Positions 5,078 through 24,675 of a stretch of 35,838 bases of DNA are shown piece by piece (the first letter of the stretch is position 1; the number at the start of each line of letters is the position of its first letter). The DNA comes from an uncultured Jatrophihabitantaceae bacterium (GTDB lineage Bacteria; Actinomycetota; Actinomycetes; Mycobacteriales; Jatrophihabitantaceae): assembly GCA_964245745.1 (NCBI GenBank), contig CAXTNQ010000009.1, positions 1 to 35,838 of the forward strand. The letters run 5' to 3'. The notes beneath the pieces are model-generated. The model saw nothing but the letters and a program-made list of their open reading frames with translations. It was not told where the DNA came from and did not search any database. The translations under genes and the position numbers were made by a program.

Positions 5078-5242
5078 CTCGCGACCATAGGCAGGTTGTC
5101 GGGTCGCCCGCAAAGTGCACAGAGCCCCCGATCTCGGACACTGGCGCTCGGGCGGTTTGTCAACGTACGGTCATAATGCGACGTCTGCCGAGTCCAAACA
5201 GGTGGCTACGGAGGGCGCTCGGTCCCGCGAAAGGGATTCCCC

Positions 5243-5932
5243 ATGCACCGTCTGATTTCCCTGACGACGCGCGCCGGCATCGTGGCTGGCGTTGTGACTG
5301 CTTCGGCCACCTTTGGAGTGGCCTCCGCCCACGCTGCGGCGAGCGGCCAGGACAGCACCTTCGTCACCGGCAACGAGCAAACCAACCTCGCCGAGATCAC
5401 AATCGGCCAGCTGGCCCTGCAGCGTAGCTCGAACACCGCAGTGCGCCAGCTCGCGACGATGACGATCAGTGATCACCAGGCCGCCCAGGCCAAGCTCAAG
5501 CCGGTGGCGCAGGCGCTCACCCTCACCCTCCCCACCGTCCCGAGCGCCATGCAGCAACAGCAGGCGGCCCAGTTGCAGGCGGCTTCGGCCGCGCAGTTCG
5601 ACACTCTGTACTCGCAGATCCAGGTGGCCGGTCACCAAACGGCGATCGCCGACACAAACACTGAGATCTCCGGCGGAGGCGACCCGTCCGTCGTCACGTA
5701 CGCCAAGGGCTACCTGCCGGTGGCCACCATGCATCTGCAGATGGCGCAGGACGCTCTGAGCCAGCTGACCGGCACACCGAACGGCGTACCGGCGGGCAAC
5801 GGCGGCCAGGCCGCCGAGGTCGGTACCGGGACGCCGGCCTGGGCAATCGCGACCACCGTCGGCGGAACCGCCGCCGCGATCGTCGGCCTACTGGTGTTCG
5901 GCCGGATGCGCCTGCGCCGTTCCAGCCGCTAG
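5243..5932 (+). CDS. secreted DUF4142-like protein with C-terminal membrane anchor
   Basis: ATG preceded by AAGGGA. Signal-like N-terminus (LTTRAGIVAGVVTASATFGVASAHA). DSTFVTGNEQTNLAEITIGQLALQRS and ISDHQAA resemble DUF4142. C-terminal TM helix plus RMRLRRSSR tail. Confidence 0.65.
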   Translation: MHRLISLTTRAGIVAGVVTASATFGVASAHAAASGQDSTFVTGNEQTNLAEITIGQLALQRSSNTAVRQLATMTISDHQAAQAKLKPVAQALTLTLPTVPSAMQQQQAAQLQAASAAQFDTLYSQIQVAGHQTAIADTNTEISGGGDPSVVTYAKGYLPVATMHLQMAQDALSQLTGTPNGVPAGNGGQAAEVGTGTPAWAIATTVGGTAAAIVGLLVFGRMRLRRSSR

Positions 5933-5962
5933 TCCCTGTCTCGCCCGCGAGCGCGAGTTGGG

Positions 5963-5999
5963 CGCCTCGAGCGGACCGGTTTACCGCACGGTCGAGGCG
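5963..5999. terminator. hairpin between convergent genes (candidate bidirectional terminator)
   Basis: CGCCTCGA (5963-5970) pairs with TCGAGGCG (5992-5999), with an inner GCGG/CCGC stem. The right arm overlaps the last codons of the minus-strand gene. No U-tract. Confidence 0.3.
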
Positions 6000-7135
6000 T
6001 CGGCGTACCGCAGCCGAGCGGCGATACCGCCGTCGACGTAACGGTGGGCGTCCGGCGTGATCAACACGTCGGCCCCACCGCCGATGACGGCGCGCACGAG
6101 CGCGGCATCGAGCCGGTCCTCCTGCGGCTCGTCCACGCCCATCTCGTGCAGCTCCTCGGCCGTCGCGCCGAACACCAACGGGTCAGGTCCGATCCATGCC
6201 TTCAGCGTCGACGAGGGGTCGTCGGAGACGATCAGCGTTTCGACCTGCGCTCGGCGTAGCGCGTCGATCACTGCGGGGACCCCGGCCACGGCGTAATCGC
6301 CGCGTCCGAAGCCTTCCTGCAGTTTGGCCAGGACATCGCGCCGCTCGCGCCAGACGCGGTGCAGCAGCGCGTCGTGGACCGCGGCGTCCAACGCCTCCTG
6401 CTCGGCGGCAGACTGTTGCCCGCGCGCGCCGGCGTCGATCTCGACAACGTCGACGTTGGGGTTGACGACGTTGGGGACGTCCTGCGCCACGAGCGTTCGC
6501 GCCCGTTCGTCACCACCCACCAGGACGAGCCGGGCCGCCGCCTGCCCCACGTGGTCCGCGACCCGTTCGGCGATCTCGCGGGCGTTCGCTGCCTCGGTGT
6601 TGTCCACCTTGTTCTGGAAGTGCCACGCTGAGCGGTCGGCGTCCCGCGCCATGTGCACCGGCCAGGTGACCGAGCCCTTGACCACATCGTGCTGGCCCTG
6701 CTCGCCTTCGGTGGCGACCTGCGCCGTCGTGCTCCAGACGTCGGCGCCTTCCCGGTCGGCCACGACGAGGACGTAGGCGATCGCGGGGCCCCGCTGGGCG
6801 AGGTAGGGCATCAGGTGTGGCAAGGGTGCCCATCTCGTCCCGGGACGCGCCGGTGGCTGCGGCAGGACGGCGTCGAACCGGACCTCGCCGGCCGCCGCCA
6901 CAACGACCTGCCCGGGTGGCCCGGTGGCGTCGCGGTGCTGGCCGACGACCGCCGCGATGGCGTCGAGCGTGGCCTCGTCGGCGCCGGCCTGCGCGAGTTC
7001 CTCGCGGTGAGCTCGCCAGCGCAAGTCGACCTCGCGATCGCCCTCCTCGGTCGAACGGGTGGCGTCGAGGTACATCGTGGCGTACGGGCCGGCGGTCGCG
7101 TAGATCTCGGCGGGTAACAGGGTCATGCTTGGCAC
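5981..7135 (-). CDS. bacterial eRF1/Pelota/Vms1-like (baeRF) family protein
   Basis: 384-aa ORF with GTG at 7135 and an alternative ATG at 7126. The C-terminal block DYAVAGVPAVIDALRRAQVETLIVSDD resembles eRF1 domain 3. The N-terminus (ATMYLD.....DLRWR) resembles actinobacterial release-factor-like proteins. Assignment is by eye only. Confidence 0.5.
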   Translation of the reverse strand: MPSMTLLPAEIYATAGPYATMYLDATRSTEEGDREVDLRWRAHREELAQAGADEATLDAIAAVVGQHRDATGPPGQVVVAAAGEVRFDAVLPQPPARPGTRWAPLPHLMPYLAQRGPAIAYVLVVADREGADVWSTTAQVATEGEQGQHDVVKGSVTWPVHMARDADRSAWHFQNKVDNTEAANAREIAERVADHVGQAAARLVLVGGDERARTLVAQDVPNVVNPNVDVVEIDAGARGQQSAAEQEALDAAVHDALLHRVWRERRDVLAKLQEGFGRGDYAVAGVPAVIDALRRAQVETLIVSDDPSSTLKAWIGPDPLVFGATAEELHEMGVDEPQEDRLDAALVRAVIGGGADVLITPDAHRYVDGGIAARLRYADASTVR

Positions 7136-7529
7136 CCTACTGACGCGCTCAGCCGTCGCCGCGGCTCATTTCGCGCAGCGCCGCATCGTCGCTGGGCTGG
7201 GCGTCCGGCGTGCGCAACGGCCGCCACACCCATACCGCGAACAGGCCGCGAGCACGACCATGCCGACACCGGTTCAGATGTTGATGTGCACGCCCGACGG
7301 AAAAAGTCGTTGCTCGTCCGGACCGCACGTCGGGCCAGTAACCCGATGACGTGCACGACCACGAAGTAGCCGATCAGCAAGGTGTCGTCGAGCGGCGTCG
7401 ACCTGCAGGCGAAGTCCGGCGGCGAGAGGCACGCGTCACGCTCGCGAGCACAATCCCGAAGCTTGATCGGCTTCGCACGCTATGCGCGGACGGCGCTCCT
7501 GGCGAGAGTCACTTGTGGGGGTTGTCGCC

Positions 7530-8582
7530 TCACGGTGCGGTCGGCGGCAAGCGCAGCTCGCGTAGGTCTTCAGGCACCGGCCCCTCCGGTCGGTAGACCA
7601 ACGGAGCGCCGTCGTCGTCGGCGGCCGCCGCCGGAGCGTCCGCGAGGGAGAACCGGTCGCGCAGCCGCTCGTAGAAGTCGGTGTCGTCGACGCGCACGAT
7701 CTTGATCCGCCGGGCAGCCGGGTACACGCCCAACCAGTCACCCGGGTCGAGGACTCCGCGCAGCTGGCCGTCGACGCTCACCGCCACCTGGCCCGACCGC
7801 TGTAGGACCCGGATCGCCACCACCTCGTGCGGCGACAGCACGATGCTGCGGTCGAAGACCATGTGCGGCGCCACGGGCGTGAACACCACCGCGTCCAGGT
7901 ACGGCGAGAGCACCGGGCCACCTGCCGCGAAGCTGTACGCGGTAGACCCAGTGGGCGAGGCGACGATCACCGCGTCCGCAGAGTAGGAAGCGAACAGGCG
8001 GCCAGCCAGATAGATGCCGAGGCTGGCCTGCCGATCCCGCGCCAGCTTCTCGAAGACCACATCGTTGACGGCCATCACGTCGAGGGCCACTCCCCAGCCC
8101 ACCGCGGCCACCGAGCCGTCGCGCGCTTCGGGCGGCGGCAAGGCGGGCCCACGTCCGAAGCGGAGCAGCGTGTCCAGCCCGCGCGGAATGCTGAGCGGGC
8201 GCGACGCCCGCATCGTGAGGGCCAGCCGGCTCTCGATGCGGGCCGTACCGGCGGCGAAACGGTCGAGCGCCGCGGCGACCCCGGACGGGTCGACGTCGGT
8301 GAGGAAGCCGACGCGACCGGCGTTCACGCCCAGCACCGGACAGCCGGCGGCGATCGCGATGCGGGCCCCGCGCAGGAACGTCCCGTCGCCGCCGATGGTG
8401 ACCACCAGATCGAGCGGCCCCGCGTGCAACACCTCGTCCTTGCTGTGGCGACGCGGCTGCTCGTTCCACACGTCCATCTCGACGCCGACGGTGCCGTGAT
8501 CCGCGCACCACGCCTGCACGGTTGCTGCGGCGGCTCGAGCGGCGGGACGACCCTGATGGATCACCAGCCCGATGCGTCGCAC
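7530..8582 (-). CDS. nadK: NAD kinase
   Basis: GTG start at 8582. GGDGTFL motif, NDVV and TGSTAYSFAAGGP motifs. About 45 aa Pro/Asp-rich C-terminal extension. Confidence 0.85.
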   Translation of the reverse strand: MRRIGLVIHQGRPAARAAAATVQAWCADHGTVGVEMDVWNEQPRRHSKDEVLHAGPLDLVVTIGGDGTFLRGARIAIAAGCPVLGVNAGRVGFLTDVDPSGVAAALDRFAAGTARIESRLALTMRASRPLSIPRGLDTLLRFGRGPALPPPEARDGSVAAVGWGVALDVMAVNDVVFEKLARDRQASLGIYLAGRLFASYSADAVIVASPTGSTAYSFAAGGPVLSPYLDAVVFTPVAPHMVFDRSIVLSPHEVVAIRVLQRSGQVAVSVDGQLRGVLDPGDWLGVYPAARRIKIVRVDDTDFYERLRDRFSLADAPAAAADDDGAPLVYRPEGPVPEDLRELRLPPTAP

Positions 8583-9485: not shown

Positions 9486-10843
9486 TCCTCGGTCGAGATG
9501 AAGACATTCTTGGTTTCGGTGAACGCGAACGGGGCCTCCGGGCCCAGCTCGCGGCCGAGGCCGGACGCTTTGAACCCGCCGAACGGGGTCCAGTAGCGCA
9601 CGGAGGAATTCGAGTTGACGGACAGGTTGCCGCTGTCCACCGCGCGGCTGACGCGCAACGCCCGGCCGACGTCGCGCGTCCAGATCGAGCCGGACAGTCC
9701 GAACGCGCTGTCGTTGGCGAGGCTGACGGCATCCGCCTCGTCGTCGAAGGGGACGACCGCGACGACCGGGCCGAAGATCTCCTCCTGCAACAGACGATCG
9801 TGACGATCCGACGGGGTCAGCACGGTCGGCGGGAACCAGAACCCGGGTCCGTCCGGGGCGCGGCCGCGGAAGGCGACGGGCGCGTCGTCGGGGACGTAGC
9901 CGGTCACGCGGTCGCGCTGCGCGCTGCTGATCAGCGGCCCCATCTCGGTGTGCTCGTCGGCCGGGTCGGCGACGACGACGCCCTTGACTGCGGCCTCGAA
10001 GCGGGCGAGGAAAGTATCGAAGACGTTGCGCTGGACGAGAATCCGGGACCGGGCGCAGCAGTCTTGGCCGGCATTGTCGAACACCGCGTAGGGCGCGGCG
10101 GCCGCCGCCCGGTCGAGGTCCGCGTCGGCGAAGATGACGTTGGCGCTCTTGCCGCCGAGCTCGAGCGTGATCCGCTTCAGGTGCTGGGCGGCGCGCGCCA
10201 TGATCTGCCGGCCGACGTCCGTCGACCCCGTGAAGACAATCTTGGCGACGTCCGGGTGGTCGACCAGACGCTGGCCGACCACGGACCCAGGGCCGGGAAC
10301 GACCTGCAGGACGTTGGCCGGCAGCCCGGCGTCCCGGGCGAGCTCGGCCAGTCGCAACGCGGTGAGCGGGGTCAGCTCCGCCGGCTTGATCAGGACGCAG
10401 TTACCGGCGGCGAGGGCCGGCGCGAAGCCCCACGACGCGATCGGCATGGGGAAGTTCCACGGCACGATGATCCCGACTACGCCGAGCGGCTCGTGGAATG
10501 TGACGTCGACCCCTCCGGCCACCGGAATCTGCTGGCCGGACAGGCGCTCCGGGCTTCCGGCGTAATAAGAAATGACGTCGCGGGCGTTGCCGGCCTCCGA
10601 GCGCGCGTTCGAGATCGTGTGACCGGCGTTGGCCACCTCGAGCCGGGCGAGCTGCTCGCGGTCGGCGTCGACGGCCTCGGCGAAGCGCCGGAGCAGTCGC
10701 GCTCGATCGCCCGGAGAAACGGCGCGCCAACCCGGAAAGGCTCGCCGGGCACGGTCGATCGCGGCGTCGGTCTGCTCGACGTCGCAGGCCTCGACCGTGG
10801 CCACGACCTGTTCGGTCGCCGGGTTGATGAGGGCGCTTGTCAC
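9482..10843 (-). CDS. NAD(P)-dependent aldehyde dehydrogenase
   Basis: ELGGKSANVIF and FDNAGQDCCARSR (catalytic Glu and Cys motifs). GTG start at 10843. Confidence 0.9.
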   Translation of the reverse strand: MTSALINPATEQVVATVEACDVEQTDAAIDRARRAFPGWRAVSPGDRARLLRRFAEAVDADREQLARLEVANAGHTISNARSEAGNARDVISYYAGSPERLSGQQIPVAGGVDVTFHEPLGVVGIIVPWNFPMPIASWGFAPALAAGNCVLIKPAELTPLTALRLAELARDAGLPANVLQVVPGPGSVVGQRLVDHPDVAKIVFTGSTDVGRQIMARAAQHLKRITLELGGKSANVIFADADLDRAAAAAPYAVFDNAGQDCCARSRILVQRNVFDTFLARFEAAVKGVVVADPADEHTEMGPLISSAQRDRVTGYVPDDAPVAFRGRAPDGPGFWFPPTVLTPSDRHDRLLQEEIFGPVVAVVPFDDEADAVSLANDSAFGLSGSIWTRDVGRALRVSRAVDSGNLSVNSNSSVRYWTPFGGFKASGLGRELGPEAPFAFTETKNVFISTEE

Positions 10844-17586: not shown

Positions 17587-17735
17587 GAGTGACGGATCGA
17601 TATGCCGAGTGACGGACCCTGTGCCGTCACTCAGCCCGCTGCTCGGTCACTCGATCAGGTCTCCGTCACTCGATCAGATGCGGCGTCACACGATCAGGTG
17701 TCCGTCACTCGATCAGGTGAGGCGTCACCCGGTCC
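17587..17735. repeat. phased iteron-like array: two inverted plus six direct copies of GTCAC(T)CGATCAGGT at alternating 20/19-bp spacing
   Basis: GTCAC starts at 17626, 17646, 17665, 17685, 17704 and 17724 (spacings 20, 19, 20, 19, 20). The four central units are near-identical, and units 2+3 versus 4+5 form a 39-bp higher-order repeat. Reverse-complement cores CGAGTGAC occur at 17586 and 17606 (20-bp spacing). Confidence 0.9.
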
Positions 17736-17917: not shown

Positions 17918-19453
17918 TCAGGACGCCAGAGCGCTGCGAATATCGTGCCCGACGGAGGTCAGACACTTGCCGTCGGTGAGCCGCCACTTCCACCCGTGCA
18001 TCTGGCAGGTCAGCACGTCACCTTCCACGGAGCCGAACCGCGACAGGTCCGCCTTCAGATGCGGGCAACGTCGCTGCACGTCCCAACCGTCGATCGTTAT
18101 CGACTCAGCGGCCTCGGCGGCGTTCTGCTCGGTGAACCAGCCCTCCGCATAGTTGAGCCGTTCCTCGGACAGGCACTTGAAGAACACGTAGACGAACTCG
18201 TTGTACGGGCCGACGCGTTGGGCAGAGAACCGGCAGGAGAGGAACAGCGAGTTCACCCAGTCGATCTCGTGCTCGGCGACCAGCTTCTCGAGGTAGGCGC
18301 GCCGCGTACGGAAGCGGTAGCGGACGTTTTCGTCCGTGTATTCACGGACCTCGCGGGCCACGAAGTCGATGAGTATGTCGACGTCACCCCGCGTGGCGTC
18401 CTCGGCGGTGAATCGCACGCCACCGTCGATGCCGGCCGCCACATGATCCGCTTCTTCGAGCAACGGCGTGAACCACTTGCCGAGCTCGGCCAGCAGATCG
18501 ATCTCGGGACGCGCCCACGTGGCCTTCTCGGCCTCGACCGCGGGCTGCTGGCGTCCCTGGTACCCCCGCAGATAGGCCGTCTTGTCCGCGAACACCCGAG
18601 CGGGATCGAAGGGATGCGTGACCAGGCACTCCTGCTCGACCGCGGCGACCGTACCGGGCAGCAGGAGCCGGCCTTCGTGGTGTCCATGCCCGGCCAGCCA
18701 GGAGAGGTATACCGACTGGTCCGGGAAGATGTTCGACTCGTCGCCGAAGATGTCGTTGAACCCCCACAGTTCCTCGTCCAGGAAGCACGGGGGACCCGCT
18801 GTCGGGAAGACGAAGCGCGCCCCGCACTCCTCGATGTAGCGCAGCGTGCGGTCGAACTGCCGTTCGCGCTTCTGGGCCCCGAGCGCCTGCTTGGCCCGCT
18901 TCGGTAGCTCGTACACCATCGGGAACCAGATGGCGCCGGAGAACTGCACGAGGTAGGAGTCGATCGGGCCGAGTGCGGTGAAGACGTTCAACGAGGACGG
19001 GCGAGCGTCGTTCTGGTTGAGCAGCCGCTGTTGTCCGTCGTACACCCACAGGGACGAGTCGCCGATCGGACCGTCGGTCGGGGAGACCAGCGACTGGATC
19101 ATGATGTGCAGCCCGTCGACCTCGACGATCTCCTCCGACTTCGGCGCTACGAAACGGTGAAACCCCAGGTCGCGCAGGGCGTCCTCGAGGTCGGACGGCG
19201 GGTTGTCGGGCTGGAGGACCGTGATGTCCTTATCGACGTAGCGGCGCAGGTGTTCGGGGTCGAAGTGATCATGATGAAGGTGGCTGACGAACAGGTAGTC
19301 GGCGCGGCCGTAGGCGTCCCAGTCCAACTGTGAGTTATCCGGAAACGGGAACCACGAGCCGAAGTACGCGGGGTTGACCCAGGGGTCGGTGAGGATGCTG
19401 CCGTGGGCGGTCTCGATCAGGACGCTGGCGTGGCCCAACCCGGTCAGTCGCAC
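17918..19453 (-). CDS. MBL-fold (metallo-beta-lactamase-like) / C-terminal Rieske [2Fe-2S] fusion protein
   Basis: Probable GTG start at 19453 (VRLTGLGHASVLIE...); the longer ORF would overlap the CHAT gene by 167 nt. HLHHDHFD metal motif. C-terminal Rieske ligands CPH...CQMH (RRCPHLKADL ... LTCQMHGWKW). Confidence 0.75.
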   Translation of the reverse strand: MRLTGLGHASVLIETAHGSILTDPWVNPAYFGSWFPFPDNSQLDWDAYGRADYLFVSHLHHDHFDPEHLRRYVDKDITVLQPDNPPSDLEDALRDLGFHRFVAPKSEEIVEVDGLHIMIQSLVSPTDGPIGDSSLWVYDGQQRLLNQNDARPSSLNVFTALGPIDSYLVQFSGAIWFPMVYELPKRAKQALGAQKRERQFDRTLRYIEECGARFVFPTAGPPCFLDEELWGFNDIFGDESNIFPDQSVYLSWLAGHGHHEGRLLLPGTVAAVEQECLVTHPFDPARVFADKTAYLRGYQGRQQPAVEAEKATWARPEIDLLAELGKWFTPLLEEADHVAAGIDGGVRFTAEDATRGDVDILIDFVAREVREYTDENVRYRFRTRRAYLEKLVAEHEIDWVNSLFLSCRFSAQRVGPYNEFVYVFFKCLSEERLNYAEGWFTEQNAAEAAESITIDGWDVQRRCPHLKADLSRFGSVEGDVLTCQMHGWKWRLTDGKCLTSVGHDIRSALAS

Positions 19454-19526
19454 CGGTCCACGGTAACGGCCGTTAGTCCGCCAACGGTGTTGACCCAGCG
19501 GACTCAGGCGAAGCGTGCGGCGCGCG

Positions 19527-22244
19527 TCATGAGGCTCGATCGCGAAGGAGCGGCGGGGCGAAGCCGGCGCCGAAGCACAGGAACCCGGCGGCCGTCGCGA
19601 TCCCGGCCGGCCCGGTGGCCGCCGTCTCGACCTGGGCGGCCGCCAGCGCGGCCGCGGGCGCCTCGCCGCGACCCAACCTCTCGTGCAGCGCATTCATCAG
19701 GGGACGGGTCTCGACGTCGAGGATTGGGAGCACCGACGCCACCAGTTGTGCACTCCCCTGGGCCAGCAACGTGGCCGTCAGCCCCAGCAGCTCGTCGCCC
19801 GACGGCACCACAGGACGACCGGAGTCGCAGGCGGCCACGACTACCGTGTGCGCGGCGCGGGGCAACCGCTCGAGGTCGTAGATCATCAGCGGCCCGTCGC
19901 TCAGCCGGATCGCGTCGAACTGCGGGTTGTCGGCTCGGACCCGCCCGTGCGCCGCGAGGTGAACGAGCGCGGCGCCGTCCATGGCCTGCAGGACCCGTCC
20001 CACCGTGGCGGCCCCGTCGGTCAACGCCGTGGCGTCGTGCCATCTGGCCACGTCGCGGGCTTCCTCGACCGCCGCCGGCAGGTCGGGGCCGGCGGCGACG
20101 ACGATCCGATCCGTGCCGGGCGCCCGCGACCGAGCGGCGTGCCACAACGTCGCCGACGGGCTTACCGTCACCGGACGTCCCGCACACGAGGGCAACGTCG
20201 ACCACGGGAGCCACTGCAGGCGTCCGGTCGGGACGATCACCAAGGACCGGTCGCCCAGCTCGGTGAGTGGGCAGATCATCAGCTGATCCAGTTCGCGTGC
20301 CGCCGCTTCGAGCAGCCGCCTCGCGGCCGTCAGCTCGGCCGGACGGGCTCGTCGACGGGCGAGGCGATGCAGCGCGAACGGCAACCGTTCGGCGAGCGAC
20401 GTCACGCGCGACACGGCGCCGAGTACGTGCAGGCGGGTGCGACCGTCCACGAGCGTCACCGCGTACAGGGTGTCGTCCAGGGCGACGTACTCGATCAGTG
20501 CCACATCGCCCAGGGCAGCGCGCAAACCGGAAACCGTGATCAAGGCCGCCGACTTGCCGCCCGCGACCCGCCGCCGGCGATACCGATCGCGGACGACGCG
20601 CTCGAGGTTGGCCTGCCGGGCCAGCAGAGTCGGGCTGGCTTCACCCTGGGCGCGCCGGTCCTCGACCTCGCGGATTACCGACCGCAGTTCGACGAGCCGT
20701 TCGGCGAGTTCAGGATCGTCGGGCGGCCGTCCGGGAGGCCGGGCCAGGTGGCTGGCGCGGCCCAGCTCCGCCCACGCCAGCACATCTCGGGCCGAGCCGT
20801 GCTCGATCGCGATGCGCGCGCCGAGGACGCTCAATTCGTTGCGGTGCGTCGCTACGTGAGCCCTGATGTCGGTCGCGCCGAGCACGGCGGCGTAGTCGTC
20901 GAGGATGCGTAGCCCGCGCCGGACCGCCCGCCGCGCGCCGGCGTCGTCGTCGTGCGCGCGGTGCAGCACGGCCGTGGCGTACCACGCTCGAGCGCGGACC
21001 GTCGCCGTGCCGTTCGTCCGGCTGCGGGCGGCCGCGCGCAGGAACCGTTCGGCGTCCGCCGGCCGACGACGCGTCAGGGCCGCCTCACCGGCTTGGATGC
21101 GGGCCTCGAGCGCGACGTGGGGCCACAGCCCGGAGGCGGCGGCGATGGTCTGCTCGAGGTGGCCGGTATCCGGCGCGCGTCCGGTGCCGACCAGGCGCAG
21201 CGTGATCACGATCAGGCGTGCGAGGGCCGCCAGCTGGCGTTGACCCTGGCGGTCCAGCTCCCGGGCGGCCGACCGAGCCTGGCCGAGGGCACCGTCCAGA
21301 TTGCCCTGCAACTGCCGCGTACGCGCCAGGATCAAGCGCGCTTCCGGCAGGATCGCGCCGCGTCCCTCGGTCAGACACGCCGCGACGGCACGTTCGGCGA
21401 CCTCGGACGCCTCGGCAATGAGTCGCGCCGAGAGCAAGAGCTCTGCCCGGTCGCGCAGTAACGGTCCGAGCTGAGCGCCGAGCTCGACGAAGCGGGCCCC
21501 GGCCCGGTCGAAGTACTCGAGGGCGGCCGGGATGTCGCCGCGCAGCACTTCGAGGTAGCCCAGGTTGTGGTCGACATGACCTTGGGAAAGCGCCGCGTCG
21601 GACTTCTCGAACAGCTCGCGCGCCTCCTGCAGGTCGGCGTCGGCGGCGCCGAAGCTCAGCAGGTGCGCGTGGGCGTTACCCCGGTTCATCAGCACCTTGC
21701 CGAGCCACACCGGGTCGTCCGCTTCGCGCAGCACCGCGATCGCCGCGCTGTAGTCCGGCACCGCCACCGCGATGCGCCCTTGCTGGTGCCGTACGACGCC
21801 ACGTAACGCGAGCGCGCGGGCGAGCTCCAGACCGTCGAGGACATCGACCGCTCGCCCGATCACGCGGACCGCCTCCGCTGATCGGCCGCGCCAGCTCAGC
21901 AGGTAGGCGAGGCTCATCCTGGCCTCGGCCTCGACCGTCGGCGAGCCGGCGCGGTGACCCCACCGGACCGCCTCTCGGGCCGCGCCCAAGGCAGCTTCGA
22001 CGTCGTCCAATTGGAACAACGCTAAGCCCTGCACCCGCGCGGCGATCGAATGCACGACAGCGTCCGACGTCGGCACCTGTAATGCGGTGGCCAGCTTGAG
22101 GGCGCGACGCGGGTCGGCGTCCACAAGGGTCAGGGCGTCACGCGCCTGCTGCTCCACGGACGTCGTCACGTACGGCCCTTCCCCTGCAGGTCGTTCACAG
22201 GCATTCTCCTGTATCAGGCGCGCCGACGCCTCCTCCTTGCCCAT
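19527..22244 (-). CDS. TPR-repeat protein with C-terminal CHAT (caspase-like) peptidase domain
   Basis: About 550 aa of helical TPR-like repeats, then a CHAT domain with a His/Cys dyad (ALVHLAAHGRV ... VVVAACDSGRP). No signal peptide or TM. Start is ATG 22244 (no SD) or GTG 22169 (preceded by GGGGAAGGG). Confidence 0.85.
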   Translation of the reverse strand: MGKEEASARLIQENACERPAGEGPYVTTSVEQQARDALTLVDADPRRALKLATALQVPTSDAVVHSIAARVQGLALFQLDDVEAALGAAREAVRWGHRAGSPTVEAEARMSLAYLLSWRGRSAEAVRVIGRAVDVLDGLELARALALRGVVRHQQGRIAVAVPDYSAAIAVLREADDPVWLGKVLMNRGNAHAHLLSFGAADADLQEARELFEKSDAALSQGHVDHNLGYLEVLRGDIPAALEYFDRAGARFVELGAQLGPLLRDRAELLLSARLIAEASEVAERAVAACLTEGRGAILPEARLILARTRQLQGNLDGALGQARSAARELDRQGQRQLAALARLIVITLRLVGTGRAPDTGHLEQTIAAASGLWPHVALEARIQAGEAALTRRRPADAERFLRAAARSRTNGTATVRARAWYATAVLHRAHDDDAGARRAVRRGLRILDDYAAVLGATDIRAHVATHRNELSVLGARIAIEHGSARDVLAWAELGRASHLARPPGRPPDDPELAERLVELRSVIREVEDRRAQGEASPTLLARQANLERVVRDRYRRRRVAGGKSAALITVSGLRAALGDVALIEYVALDDTLYAVTLVDGRTRLHVLGAVSRVTSLAERLPFALHRLARRRARPAELTAARRLLEAAARELDQLMICPLTELGDRSLVIVPTGRLQWLPWSTLPSCAGRPVTVSPSATLWHAARSRAPGTDRIVVAAGPDLPAAVEEARDVARWHDATALTDGAATVGRVLQAMDGAALVHLAAHGRVRADNPQFDAIRLSDGPLMIYDLERLPRAAHTVVVAACDSGRPVVPSGDELLGLTATLLAQGSAQLVASVLPILDVETRPLMNALHERLGRGEAPAAALAAAQVETAATGPAGIATAAGFLCFGAGFAPPLLRDRAS

Positions 22245-22284: not shown

Positions 22285-23619
22285 ATGGCCGAGACGACTC
22301 GACTCGCACTCGAGCACACCGACGACATCGTCGTCGCGCTGTCCCACTCCGACCTGGTCCTCGACGAGCTCGGACGGCTCGTCGAGATGGAGTTGCTTGC
22401 CGCGCCGCCTCACATGCGACACCACAGCGACCGCCTGGGCCTCGGCATGATCGAGCTGAAGTTCCGGCCTGATCCCGTCGTCACGTCGGCCGAAGGTGTG
22501 GCCGCGGTGTCGAGCTTCGGGGTCACCGAGGCGCTGGCCATGGTGCGCGAGTCGTGTCGGTACAAGTACCGCGGCTGGATGCCCACCATGGGCAAGAACC
22601 GAGTGGTCAGCGGCATCGCAGGTGAAGGTGGTTACCTGGCCGGAGGCGGTGGCTACCTCGCCGGCGGCGGTGGCTATCTAGCCGGAGGCGGCGGTTATCT
22701 CGCCGGCGGGGGTGGCTACCTGGCCGGAGGCGGCGGCTACCTCGCGGGTGGCGGCGGCTACCTGGCCGGTGGCGGCGGCTACCTCGCCGGAGGCGGCGGC
22801 GGCCTACCCGAACTCGCCGACCACGCACCCCGTCGTCCGCGCGGCGATCGTGGCCACGACGCGAAGATCGCGATCCTGGACGGTCCGATCTACCGCGGTA
22901 CGGCCGTGGCCGGCCACGTCGACTACGTCGGCAAGCAGCCGGCCAAGCGCGAGCCGATGCCGATGGGCGGTGGCCACGCCGTCTTCATCCTCGGCCTGGT
23001 GCAGGACGCGGCACCGGGGGCGCGGATCACCGTGCGACCGACGCTGGACCTGCATGCGGTGGCGACGGCGTGGGAGGTGGCCACCGCGATGGCCGACTGC
23101 GCCGACGGCGAAGTCGACGTCGTCAACCTCTCCCTCGGGTGCTACACGGTCGACAACGAGCCGCCGCTGCTGCTGCAGCGCGCCGTCGACCTGTTGAGCG
23201 CTCGCACGCTGGTCGTTGCCGCGGCCGGCAACCATCGCCAACCGCGTCACCCGCGCCCGTTCTGGCCCGCAGCGATGGAGAACGTCATCGCGGTCGGCGC
23301 TCGTGACGAGGACAACCGGCTCGCCACGTTCAGCCCACGCGCGCCGTGGGTCGACGTGACCGCGCCCGGCGTGCACGTGGTCAGCCAGTACCTCGACGGC
23401 AAGGTCGAGTTGGCGCCGCGCACCGAGCGCGACCCCGCGGAGATTGAGGAGTTTCCCGGCTACGCCCGGTGGCGCGGCACGTCGTTCGCGGCGGCCACGG
23501 TCACCGGCGAGATCGCCCGGCACATGACCGGCAAGCGCGACCCCCACAAGGCGCTCGAGCGCATGCTGGCGCAGCCGCACGAGGCCACGCCCGTCCGCCG
23601 CTACCACCACCACGCGTGA
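22285..23619 (+). CDS. cytoplasmic S8 (subtilisin-family) serine peptidase with about 112-aa N-terminal domain and (GGGGYLA)x8 linker
   Basis: ATG preceded by AGGAGA. Catalytic triad contexts AKIAILDG (Asp), GGGHAVFILG (His), GTSFAAATVTG (Ser); oxyanion AAAGNH. No signal peptide. Confidence 0.85.
   Translation: MAETTRLALEHTDDIVVALSHSDLVLDELGRLVEMELLAAPPHMRHHSDRLGLGMIELKFRPDPVVTSAEGVAAVSSFGVTEALAMVRESCRYKYRGWMPTMGKNRVVSGIAGEGGYLAGGGGYLAGGGGYLAGGGGYLAGGGGYLAGGGGYLAGGGGYLAGGGGYLAGGGGGLPELADHAPRRPRGDRGHDAKIAILDGPIYRGTAVAGHVDYVGKQPAKREPMPMGGGHAVFILGLVQDAAPGARITVRPTLDLHAVATAWEVATAMADCADGEVDVVNLSLGCYTVDNEPPLLLQRAVDLLSARTLVVAAAGNHRQPRHPRPFWPAAMENVIAVGARDEDNRLATFSPRAPWVDVTAPGVHVVSQYLDGKVELAPRTERDPAEIEEFPGYARWRGTSFAAATVTGEIARHMTGKRDPHKALERMLAQPHEATPVRRYHHHA
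22627..22803 (+). repeat. in-frame 21-bp tandem repeat x8 encoding GGGGYLA
   Basis: Tyr codons fall at 22633 plus 21n (n=0-7). Peptide units are identical, while codons vary synonymously (Tyr TAC/TAT, Leu CTG/CTC/CTA, Ala GCC/GCG, Gly GGT/GGC/GGA/GGG). Confidence 0.95.
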
Positions 23620-23624
23620 CACCG

Positions 23625-24221
23625 ATGCACGACGACCCGACCGTCATCACCCTCGTCCGCCGGGCGCAGGGTGGTGAGCAAGCCGCGTGGGACGAGATCG
23701 TCGAACGGTTCGCTCCTCTCGTGTGGGGCATCTGCCGGCGGTTTCGGCTCGCAGACACCGACGCGCACGACGTCGGTCAGAACGTCTGGCTACGACTGGT
23801 CGAGCACCTGGACAAGCTGCGCGAGCCGGCGGCGTTGCCGGGCTGGATCGCCACGACCACCCGTCGTGAATGCATTCGCGCGCAGCGGGCAGCGTGGGAT
23901 CACGAGCGCGAACAGATCGAGCCGGACGCCCAGGTTGCGGCCGACGAGGAATCCACGCAGGTCGACCAGTGGCTACTGGCGGACGAGCGGGACTCGGTGA
24001 TCCGGGCCGCGTTCGCGCAGTTGCAACCGCGCTGCCAACAATTGCTGGCGCTGTTGATGAAGGATCCGCCGCCGGCGTACACGGAGATCAGCACATCCCT
24101 GCACATGCCGGTCGGAGCGATCGGGCCGAACCGCGCCCGCTGCCTGGACAAACTGCGGCGCAGTCCCTTGCTGGCCGCGTTCATCGACAGCCGCTCCCCC
24201 GCGGCGGGAATGGGTCTGTGA
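23625..24221 (+). CDS. ECF-type sigma-70 family RNA polymerase sigma factor
   Basis: ATG lies 5 nt after the S8 stop. Region 2 (FAPLVWGICRRFRLADTDAHDVGQNVWLRLVEH) and region 4 HTH (YTEISTSLHMPVGAIGPNRARCLDKLR). Confidence 0.9.
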   Translation: MHDDPTVITLVRRAQGGEQAAWDEIVERFAPLVWGICRRFRLADTDAHDVGQNVWLRLVEHLDKLREPAALPGWIATTTRRECIRAQRAAWDHEREQIEPDAQVAADEESTQVDQWLLADERDSVIRAAFAQLQPRCQQLLALLMKDPPPAYTEISTSLHMPVGAIGPNRARCLDKLRRSPLLAAFIDSRSPAAGMGL

Positions 24222-24222
24222 C

Positions 24223-24675
24223 GTGACCGAGAACTGGTGGAGCGACGACGACACGTTCGCCGCTGCGGTGGCGACGGCCCTCACGCCCGTCCCCGAGAGC
24301 TTCGTCGGGGCGGCCAAGGCGGTGTTCACTTGGCACAACATCGACGCCGAGCTGGCTGCGCTGGTGTACGACTCCGCGCAGGACGCGCTGGCCGCGGCCG
24401 GCACACGAGCCGAACCGGCCTCGCTGCGCTCGCTGACCTTCGACGCCCAGCACGTCACCATCGAGCTCGAGATCATCGACGACGTACTGCACGGCCAGCT
24501 GGTGCCGGCCACCTCAGGGCAGATCGAGGTCCGTCCACTGCGGGGCGATCCGACCACGGTCGACGTCGACGATGTCGGGTACTTCACGGTGACCCCGCTG
24601 CCGCAGGGCCGGTTCCGGCTCTACTGCCAGCCCGCCGACGGCGAGGCCGTGCTGACCGACTGGATCACCCTGTAA
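24223..24675 (+). CDS. 150-aa soluble protein translationally coupled to the ECF sigma (candidate non-canonical anti-sigma/partner)
   Basis: GTG lies 1 nt after the sigma stop (TGA-C-GTG). N-terminal helix FTWHNIDAELAALVYDS. The C-terminal half is beta-rich (GYFTVTPLPQGRFRLYC). No HxxxCxxC motif and no TM. Confidence 0.6.
   Translation: MTENWWSDDDTFAAAVATALTPVPESFVGAAKAVFTWHNIDAELAALVYDSAQDALAAAGTRAEPASLRSLTFDAQHVTIELEIIDDVLHGQLVPATSGQIEVRPLRGDPTTVDVDDVGYFTVTPLPQGRFRLYCQPADGEAVLTDWITL

Follow-up and report, generated by a model that had tools for sequence, protein, structure and literature searches.

Intracellular subtilisins (ISPs) are inhibited by an N-terminal motif, [LVI][IFLV]P[YFH], that lies across the active site and keeps the scissile bond out of reach, and their processing is thought to be multi-step (PMC6220982). 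In CRISPR type III cascades, proteases act on the control of transcription: Csx29, a TPR-CHAT protein, cleaves Csx30 and so relieves the inhibition of a sigma factor of the extracytoplasmic function (ECF) type (PMC10028731), and a SAVED-CHAT protein activates a second protease, PCaspase, which cleaves a sigma factor and its inhibitor (bioRxiv 10.1101/2023.06.23.546230). The locus described here combines elements that recall both. We analyzed a stretch of 35,838 nucleotides (the window) from an uncultured Jatrophihabitantaceae bacterium (contig CAXTNQ010000009.1, forward strand), which encodes a subtilisin-like protease of the S8 family in a module with genes for a TPR-CHAT protease, a sigma factor of the ECF type and a 150-residue protein. 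Between its N-terminal and catalytic domains, the S8 protein carries eight identical copies of a glycine-rich heptapeptide. Comparison with its relatives shows that this array is an amplified form of a motif that most members of the family have once. The parts of the S8 gene are as follows.

22285..23619, + strand: S8 (subtilisin-like) protease gene containing the repeat, 444 aa, with a Pfam Peptidase_S8 match, the catalytic residues and AGGAG 9 nt 5' of the ATG
22285..22626, + strand: N-terminal domain, residues 1-114, novel in sequence, prodomain-like by predicted fold, with a GW-P-GKNR end
22627..22794, + strand: the repeat array, residues 115-170, made up of eight 21-bp units in frame that all encode GGYLAGG; disordered in the model
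22795..22860, + strand: Gly run and conserved 'GLP' anchor (GGGLPELADHAPRRPRGDRGHD), a predicted ordered lead-in to the catalytic domain (predicted local distance difference test score, pLDDT, 88-96 from residue 171)
22879..22881, + strand: codon of catalytic Asp199, invariant, aligning with D32 of subtilisin BPN'
22975..22977, + strand: codon of catalytic His231, invariant, aligning with H64 of BPN'
23230..23232, + strand: codon of the oxyanion-hole residue Asn316, at least 90% conserved, aligning with N155 of BPN'
23482..23484, + strand: codon of catalytic Ser400 in the motif GTSFAA, invariant, aligning with S221 of BPN'

Tandem Repeats Finder places the array at 22633-22800, with a period of 21, 8.0 copies, 83% matches, no indels and a score of 224. 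Read from position 22627, it consists of eight identical GGYLAGG units and then GGC GGC GGC up to position 22803, after which the protein continues with LPEL. An initial annotation of this DNA had described a 21-bp unit repeated eight times in frame with identical peptide units, which is correct in this register. Its wording of eight perfect GGGGYLA repeats applies to seven units, the first one reading GEGGYLA. It also listed the synonymous variants TAC/TAT, CTG/CTC/CTA, GCC/GCG and mixed glycine codons, all of which are present, glycine being encoded by GGT, GGC, GGA and GGG. All eight DNA units differ from one another. The third codon position is variable in each of the seven codons, and none of the 14 first and second positions varies. 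Mean pairwise identity between units is 0.84, with 3.3 of the seven third positions differing per pair.

This pattern is difficult to reconcile with drift. Of the 63 single-base changes that a 21-bp unit can undergo, just 20 are silent, and the array needs at least nine independent changes. Under neutral drift, the probability that all of these (at least nine) would be silent is at most 3e-5. The same constraint is seen in nine arrays compared at the DNA level (that of the window and eight more), in which 30 of 30 variable columns are synonymous. Selection on the peptide, as originally proposed, is therefore upheld: the repeat peptide is under purifying selection, and each copy is kept.

Not all of the silent variation arose unit by unit. 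CTG/CTC and GGA/GGC alternate from one unit to the next in the window array, and Tandem Repeats Finder detects in it a super-period of 42 bp (86% matches), which together indicate that part of the variation was copied along in duplications of two-unit blocks. The longest exact repeat inside the array is 17 nt, making collapse or expansion during assembly unlikely and leaving the array poorly suited to further slippage. We rejected an assembly artefact on two grounds, this 17-nt limit and the distinctness of all eight DNA units. Five to six copies are found in relatives on contigs of 200-442 kb from environmental genome bins, which, to judge by the length of the contigs, are probably long-read assemblies. 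The eight-unit array is real.

To place the array in its family, we searched 5.8 billion proteins and obtained 152 relatives. Those with a complete N-terminus all share the same architecture. The N-terminal domain ends invariantly in G97-W98, any residue, P100, two residues and G103-K104-N105-R106, and a short Gly-rich junction comes next. Across the family, the junction reads GKNR, a few residues, [Y/F/H/Q][L/I/V][small], then GGG, G, any residue and P; the motif could be placed after the invariant GKNR in 74 relatives. Most members have one copy, such as G-[L/F/S/A]-P-[H/Y]-[I/V]-[D/G/S]-GGG, any residue, G, any residue, P. The clade of the window protein has G4-X3 heptads at the junction, in one to eight copies and with varied tripeptides: YLA x8 in the window, FLS x4 in P0002, FLA x5, YLG x8 and x5, (P)HIS x4, VLV x2-3, QVS in 1, 2, 3, 4, 5 or 6 copies among relatives, and QVT in at least three. 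In nearly all repeat-bearing homologues, 'GGGG[L/F]P' comes after the array.

Amplification has also occurred independently elsewhere in the family, with periods of 5, 7, 11-13, 19 and ~25 residues (P0005, P0026-31, P0044, P0050, P0070 and P0071). By lineage, the period is 11-19 residues in P0026-31, 12 in P0050, 5 in P0070, 12 in P0071 and ~25 in P0044. Every one of these amplifications includes the aromatic/His-aliphatic core of the motif. The window array is a tandem amplification of the conserved single-copy junction motif and, by the same comparison, the longest and most diverged example of an amplification that recurs in the family.

The initial annotation had taken the silent variation to speak for selection rather than recent slippage, and for the family this second half was wrong. 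Proteins that are 98-99.5% identical outside the array differ in copy number, with 1, 2, 3, 4 or 6 units (1 versus 4 copies at 99.5% identity; 3 versus 6 at 99.2%). Other arrays are more homogeneous than that of the window, with unit identities of 0.90-0.98, and several hold three to five identical adjacent DNA units, which we take as a sign of recent duplication. In P0002, the syntenic orthologue at locus L001, FLS x4 stands where the window has YLA x8, so tripeptide and copy number have been replaced throughout. Outside the S8 gene, L001 and the window are 66-85% identical in the flanking genes, 88% in the sigma factor and 75% in the 150-residue protein; within it, identity is 68% in the catalytic domain and 50% in the N-terminal domain. 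The sigma factor and the 150-residue protein are thus far better conserved in this orthologue than the N-terminal domain of the S8 protein. Among orthologues in general, copy number varies and the conserved type of peptide is kept, the outcome that had been named in advance as support for function. The arrays evolve concertedly, by duplication, loss and homogenisation, with selection acting on the peptide.

Short-read assemblies break at the array or may collapse there, and P0121 (locus L007) and P0123 end within it. In P0122 (200 aa), the junction reads AGQRRWR x3.6, which resembles the GGC-rich heptad DNA in another frame. This looks like a frameshift at or before the array, either real or an assembly error.

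Sequence and predicted structure both point to a two-domain protease with a flexible junction. The Pfam model PF00082 (Peptidase_S8) matches residues 205-415 with an E-value of 7.5e-19 and 68.6 bits against a cut-off of 21.8, which places the protein in the S8 family. In a 61-sequence family alignment, D199, H231 and S400 do not vary and N316 is kept in at least 90% of the sequences; hmmalign aligns these four with D32, H64, S221 and N155 of subtilisin BPN', respectively. Because the catalytic set is intact, the enzyme should be active. The S8 protein has no hydrophobic segment (maximum Kyte-Doolittle value 1.32), and no signal peptide or transmembrane segment was found in any of the four module proteins. 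By these predictions, it is a soluble cytoplasmic subtilase.

From the family alignment, AlphaFold2 produced a model with a pLDDT of 84.9 and a predicted template modeling score (pTM) of 0.85, in which residues 9-115 and 171-444 are confident. Residues 116-170, which are exactly the array, have a pLDDT of ~30 and are predicted to be disordered or flexible. These confidence boundaries agree with the original placement of the repeat exactly between the N-terminal and catalytic domains. Within the N-terminal domain, pLDDT is mostly 92-98, falling to 66-75 in the loop formed by residues 61-80. We also modeled P0032, a single-copy homologue (pLDDT 89, pTM 0.91), in which the lone motif forms a low-confidence loop at residues 122-129. 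DSSP assigns the N-terminal domain of the AlphaFold2 models the topology strand-helix-strand-strand-helix-strand.

With both models, Foldseek ranks pro-subtilisins in their unautoprocessed form (3afg, 3whi and 2e1p) first among PDB entries, in alignments that span both domains and 425-480 columns. Query-normalised TM-scores for the two models are 0.50-0.57 with pro-subtilisins versus 0.40-0.50 with mature enzymes alone. The window model, whose alignments cover 435-480 columns, scores up to 0.53 with pro-subtilisins versus 0.40-0.43 with mature subtilisins, and for P0032 the top matches are 2e1p and 3whi, with a TM-score of up to 0.57. By sequence, the N-terminal domain stands apart. Three N-terminal domains of the family gave no Pfam match at E-values up to 10, and a profile search of the PDB returned chance matches only. 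Among 1.84 billion representative proteins, the domain has 12 matches, all in this S8 family, which argues that it is not a shared adaptor domain. We consider the N-terminal domain prodomain-like by predicted fold and position, without assigning it to the I9 family.

The substrate pocket bears on which residue of the motif might be cut. Counting without gaps from the VIAVGA anchor, Phe326 aligns with Gly166 at the floor of the S1 pocket in BPN', and the position is mostly Phe in the family whatever the tripeptide. In Gly166 variants of subtilisin, a bulky residue at this position favors a small P1 residue. The Phe at the S1 floor may likewise argue for a small P1. Across the family, the tripeptide varies at its first position, is aliphatic at its second and small at its third, and such a conservation pattern would suit P3-P2-P1 better than an assignment of Tyr to P1. 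The earlier suggestion that Tyr or Leu serves as P1 of self-cleavage is doubtful on this account, and also in view of the orthologues with QVS, HIS and VLV. An aromatic Tyr-ladder or phase-separation element, proposed as its alternative, does not suit the QVS and VLV orthologues. Co-variation between tripeptide class and pocket residues was uninformative because the classes coincide with clades.

The S8 gene is part of a conserved module, whose other elements in the window are these.

19527..22169, - strand: divergent TPR-CHAT (caspase-like) protease, ~880 aa, with a GTG start where homologues begin; Pfam CHAT, E 5.8e-31, plus TPR
22203..22216, + strand: conserved upstream element ATTCTCCTGTATCA, 75 nt 5' of the S8 ATG, recurring at related loci
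23625..24221, + strand: ECF-type sigma factor, 198 aa, directly 3' of the S8 gene; Sigma70_r2, E 1e-12, and TIGR02937, 68.8 bits against 42.9
24223..24675, + strand: 150-aa protein, always after the sigma gene; no family match

The CHAT open frame extends to 22328, and tblastn alignments start at residues 36-57 of this long frame, mostly at 54. The four genes (TPR-CHAT, S8, ECF sigma and 150-residue protein) occur together in 14 of 14 related loci with flanks. The CHAT gene adjoins the S8 gene in all 14; in L001 it is in fragments, and in L013 and L014 the contig ends within it. In every locus reaching that far, the sigma factor is 51-88% identical to that of the window and the 150-residue protein 40-75%. 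This last protein has no match in Pfam, NCBIfam, PADLOC or the PDB and no transmembrane segment, and we consider it a candidate soluble anti-sigma factor or substrate. In the window, neither YLA nor the pattern [YFH][LIV][AGSD]GG, which might have marked a shared substrate motif, is present in the CHAT, sigma and 150-residue proteins.

Several loci depart from the common arrangement. In L001, the CHAT gene (5239-7576) is called as fragments of 173 and 144 aa, with an unbroken alignment for residues 153-464 only; it is either a pseudogene or the product of assembly frameshift errors. The same locus has an ISL3 transposase and a PIN gene inserted after the gene for the 150-residue protein. Two contigs (L009 and L010) of one bin of an uncultured Actinomycetota bacterium (MFD05841.bin.3.160) hold two complete paralogues of the module, with QVS x6 and QVS x5. 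In L005, the sigma gene is inverted.

The upstream element helps to define the transcriptional unit. TGTATCA occurs once in the whole 35.8-kb window, where its extended form is ATTCTNNTGTATCA, and in nine other loci (L001 at 7918, L002 at 8043, L004 at 7930, L006 at 5801, L007 at 5887 and L008-L011 at 5926) the element precedes the S8 start by 68-107 nt. In L005, it is found at 10331 on the - strand, upstream of the inverted sigma gene rather than of the S8 gene, which implies that the element accompanies the sigma operon. As a control site of the S8-sigma operon, it is a candidate promoter of the auto-regulated ECF kind or a candidate operator.

The surroundings give no sign of a defensive setting. 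The window is ordinary chromosomal actinobacterial DNA of 70% G+C with genes such as those for mycothiol S-transferase, LigD and glutamine synthetase, and the module is placed among housekeeping genes and is syntenic between species. Tandem Repeats Finder detected no CRISPR-like array in the window, no defence island lies nearby, and no cas, SAVED or cyclic-oligonucleotide genes occur among the open reading frames of the window or the gene calls of the loci read. PADLOC returned a match to its generic 'subtilase' model only, with no match at the system level. In the searchable literature, we found no description of a module of CHAT, S8 and ECF genes, and the main text of the ECF reclassification paper mentions neither CHAT proteins nor subtilases. 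The four-gene module of Actinomycetota is apparently undescribed.

Three further features of the window deserve mention. An Rv3818-like protein with Lactamase_B_3, SCP2_Rv3818 and Rieske domains (17918-19693, - strand) adjoins or is near the CHAT gene. It has counterparts in the closest relatives (L001 3201-4505, L015 1-1506 and L002 61-1620) and not in distant ones. A 2025 preprint describes protease-activated effectors of the metallo-beta-lactamase (MBL) fold and links one of their clades to S8 proteases (PMC12642450). An intergenic tandem repeat with a period of 19 bp (4.2 copies) or 39 bp (2.1 copies, 90% matches) occupies positions 17646-17728, between the gene for mycothiol S-transferase and that for this Rv3818-like protein (MBL, SCP2 and Rieske domains). 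Far from the array, the gene at 5981-7165 on the - strand specifies a member of bacterial archaeo-eukaryotic release-factor family 2 (baeRF, Pfam PF18844).

How might the array work? We tentatively favor, at somewhat short of an even chance, the view that the array gives a cytoplasmic zymogen, part of a protease-to-sigma cascade, a flexible multi-copy linker for activation or processing. The N-terminal domain would hold the subtilase inactive, and cleavage at the junction motif would separate the two domains. The subtilase could make the cut itself, in cis or in trans, and the CHAT protease is as good a candidate. An autoproteolytic tether, as proposed in the initial annotation, is plausible. 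Each extra copy would provide a further, redundant accessible target and a longer tether, and copy number would set the ease of release. Once freed, the subtilase would act on the sigma regulator, probably the 150-residue protein, and so turn on a transcriptional response. Csx29/Csx30, SAVED-CHAT and the ISP motif LIPY/F are precedents that support this multi-copy activation linker.

Several observations weigh against it. The two-domain superpositions on pro-subtilisins are loose, with root-mean-square deviations of 6-8 Å at TM-scores of 0.50-0.57, and the motif is undocked in the AlphaFold2 models, even in single-copy P0032. No sequence relation between the N-terminal domain and I9 prodomains was detected in searches of Pfam (PF05922) or the PDB. 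Copy numbers taken from short-read metagenome assemblies, whose contigs break inside the array, are possibly collapsed. GGC-rich DNA is prone to slippage, and amplification may have occurred where it did through mutation bias and not because more copies were selected for. Finally, processing or recognition could in reality take place at GKNR, which is invariant and sits in the final strand of the N-terminal domain; the repeat would then be a mere spacer. Caspase-like proteases, as in defence, often cut after Arg.

Other explanations accommodate parts of the same evidence. The motif might inhibit across the active site and never be cut. Extra copies would then serve as alternative inhibitory segments or adjust how long the tether is and how concentrated the N-terminal domain is locally, and activation would come not from proteolysis but from displacement, with the TPR-CHAT protein or a ligand as possible displacing agents. 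The single-copy form G[L/F]P[H/Y][I/V] shares an [aliphatic]-P-[Y/F/H] core with the inhibitory ISP motif, the bulky Phe326 at the S1 floor would suit poor turnover of the segment, and purifying selection on each unit is as expected. However, the repeat-bearing clade has Gly in place of Pro, so that the bulge mechanism of ISPs cannot be assumed, and a resemblance of three residues can be chance. One active site does not need eight tandem inhibitory segments, and the undocked motif of the AlphaFold2 models counts here as well. We regard such an uncleaved pseudosubstrate or adjustable tether as unlikely. Docking is a rather less likely proposal, in which the TPR domain of the neighboring CHAT protein, or another partner, would bind the heptads as short linear motifs; partners would be recruited or clustered by the array, with copy number as valency, in keeping with the common activation of caspase-like proteases by induced proximity. 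TPR domains bind short peptides in an extended form. The CHAT-TPR gene is a constant neighbor, the units are regularly spaced, identical, exposed and flexible, and the tripeptide switches in all copies together between lineages, as expected of co-evolution with a binding partner. Yet most members have a single copy and close relatives have one to six, so multivalency cannot be essential.

That the array is a tolerated low-complexity expansion, produced by GGC-rich slippage in a merely flexible loop and with a copy number that means nothing, strikes us as improbable. Nearly identical proteins do differ in copy number, several arrays do have identical adjacent units, the loop is predicted to be disordered, and single-copy relatives evidently function. 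But a neutral spacer would gather amino-acid changes, whereas in the window third positions are near half diverged and none of the at least nine changes alters the peptide. The variable columns are likewise all silent (30 of 30) across the arrays examined, and the motif pattern is family-wide, its aromatic/His-aliphatic core being kept in every independent amplification. A long shot, finally, is a fast-evolving tripwire or fuse: identical bait sites in the leash of a caged subtilase, any one cut of which would unleash the enzyme and, through the ECF sigma factor, an alarm at the level of transcription. The cutter would be the sensor CHAT protease or a foreign protease, such as that of a phage, and concerted changes of tripeptide (among YLA, FLS, QVS, HIS and others) together with shifts in copy number would track the specificity of the cutter and tune the threshold. 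In a rarer variant of this idea, regular cutting would release identical heptapeptides as a signal.

Should the array indeed be an activation site in multiple copies, nature would here have tuned the sensitivity of a protease through motif copy number. The copy number of a cleavage or pseudosubstrate motif can be changed in single mutational steps, and the family offers a natural series of one to eight copies and several tripeptides. The module is also a testable route to new ECF sigma control. In our reading, the protein is a subtilase of zymogen type whose activation junction can be amplified, and it belongs to a protease-sigma module that is apparently undescribed.

Among known S8 proteases, mycosins of type VII secretion provide the best NCBIfam match and the commonest automatic label of homologues. 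We rejected this assignment: the match to TIGR03921 scores 80 bits against a cut-off of 278.75, the protein has no signal peptide or C-terminal membrane anchor, and no ESX genes are among its neighbors in the window. Like the ISPs of Bacillus and Planococcus, it is predicted to be a cytoplasmic S8 protease with an N-terminal segment of its own and a short aliphatic/aromatic motif, and the 'intracellular serine protease' chain 4zoq (entry title: lanthipeptide protease) is among its sequence and fold matches. ISPs, however, have only an extension of ~18 residues, without folded N-terminal domain, repeats, or CHAT or sigma partners, and the residue order of their motif differs. The window protein has a folded 114-residue N-terminal domain and a motif, GGYLAGG, without Pro; G[L/F]P[H/Y][I/V] of single-copy relatives bears only a partial resemblance to the ISP motif.

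The likeness to I9 pro-subtilisins (pro-subtilisin E, pro-Tk-subtilisin and ProN-Tk-SP) lies in the modeled architecture. An N-terminal domain of the order strand-helix-strand-strand-helix-strand is predicted to stand beside the catalytic domain, and the segment after its last strand runs on to the protease. I9 prodomains, such as that of PDB entry 1spb, are ~77 residues long, compared with ~110 for the N-terminal domain here, and sequence similarity between the two is undetected. The window protein also differs from I9 pro-subtilisins in being cytoplasmic and lacking a signal peptide, in the invariant GW-P-GKNR and in its Gly-rich, amplified junction; we know of no comparable tandem amplification at the junction in classical pro-subtilisins.

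At the level of the module, the closest parallel is with the CHAT-to-protease-to-sigma cascades found beside CRISPR systems, although the present module is chromosomal and without a CRISPR partner. Its second protease is an S8 subtilase and not a caspase, and the loci read have no cas, SAVED or cyclic-oligonucleotide genes. As in the type III cascades (Csx29-Csx30-CASP-sigma and SAVED-CHAT), a CHAT gene is linked to an ECF sigma gene, here in the window and 14 of 14 related loci. And as in the SAVED-CHAT system, where the CHAT protein activates a second protease by cleavage, the module pairs CHAT with a second protease.

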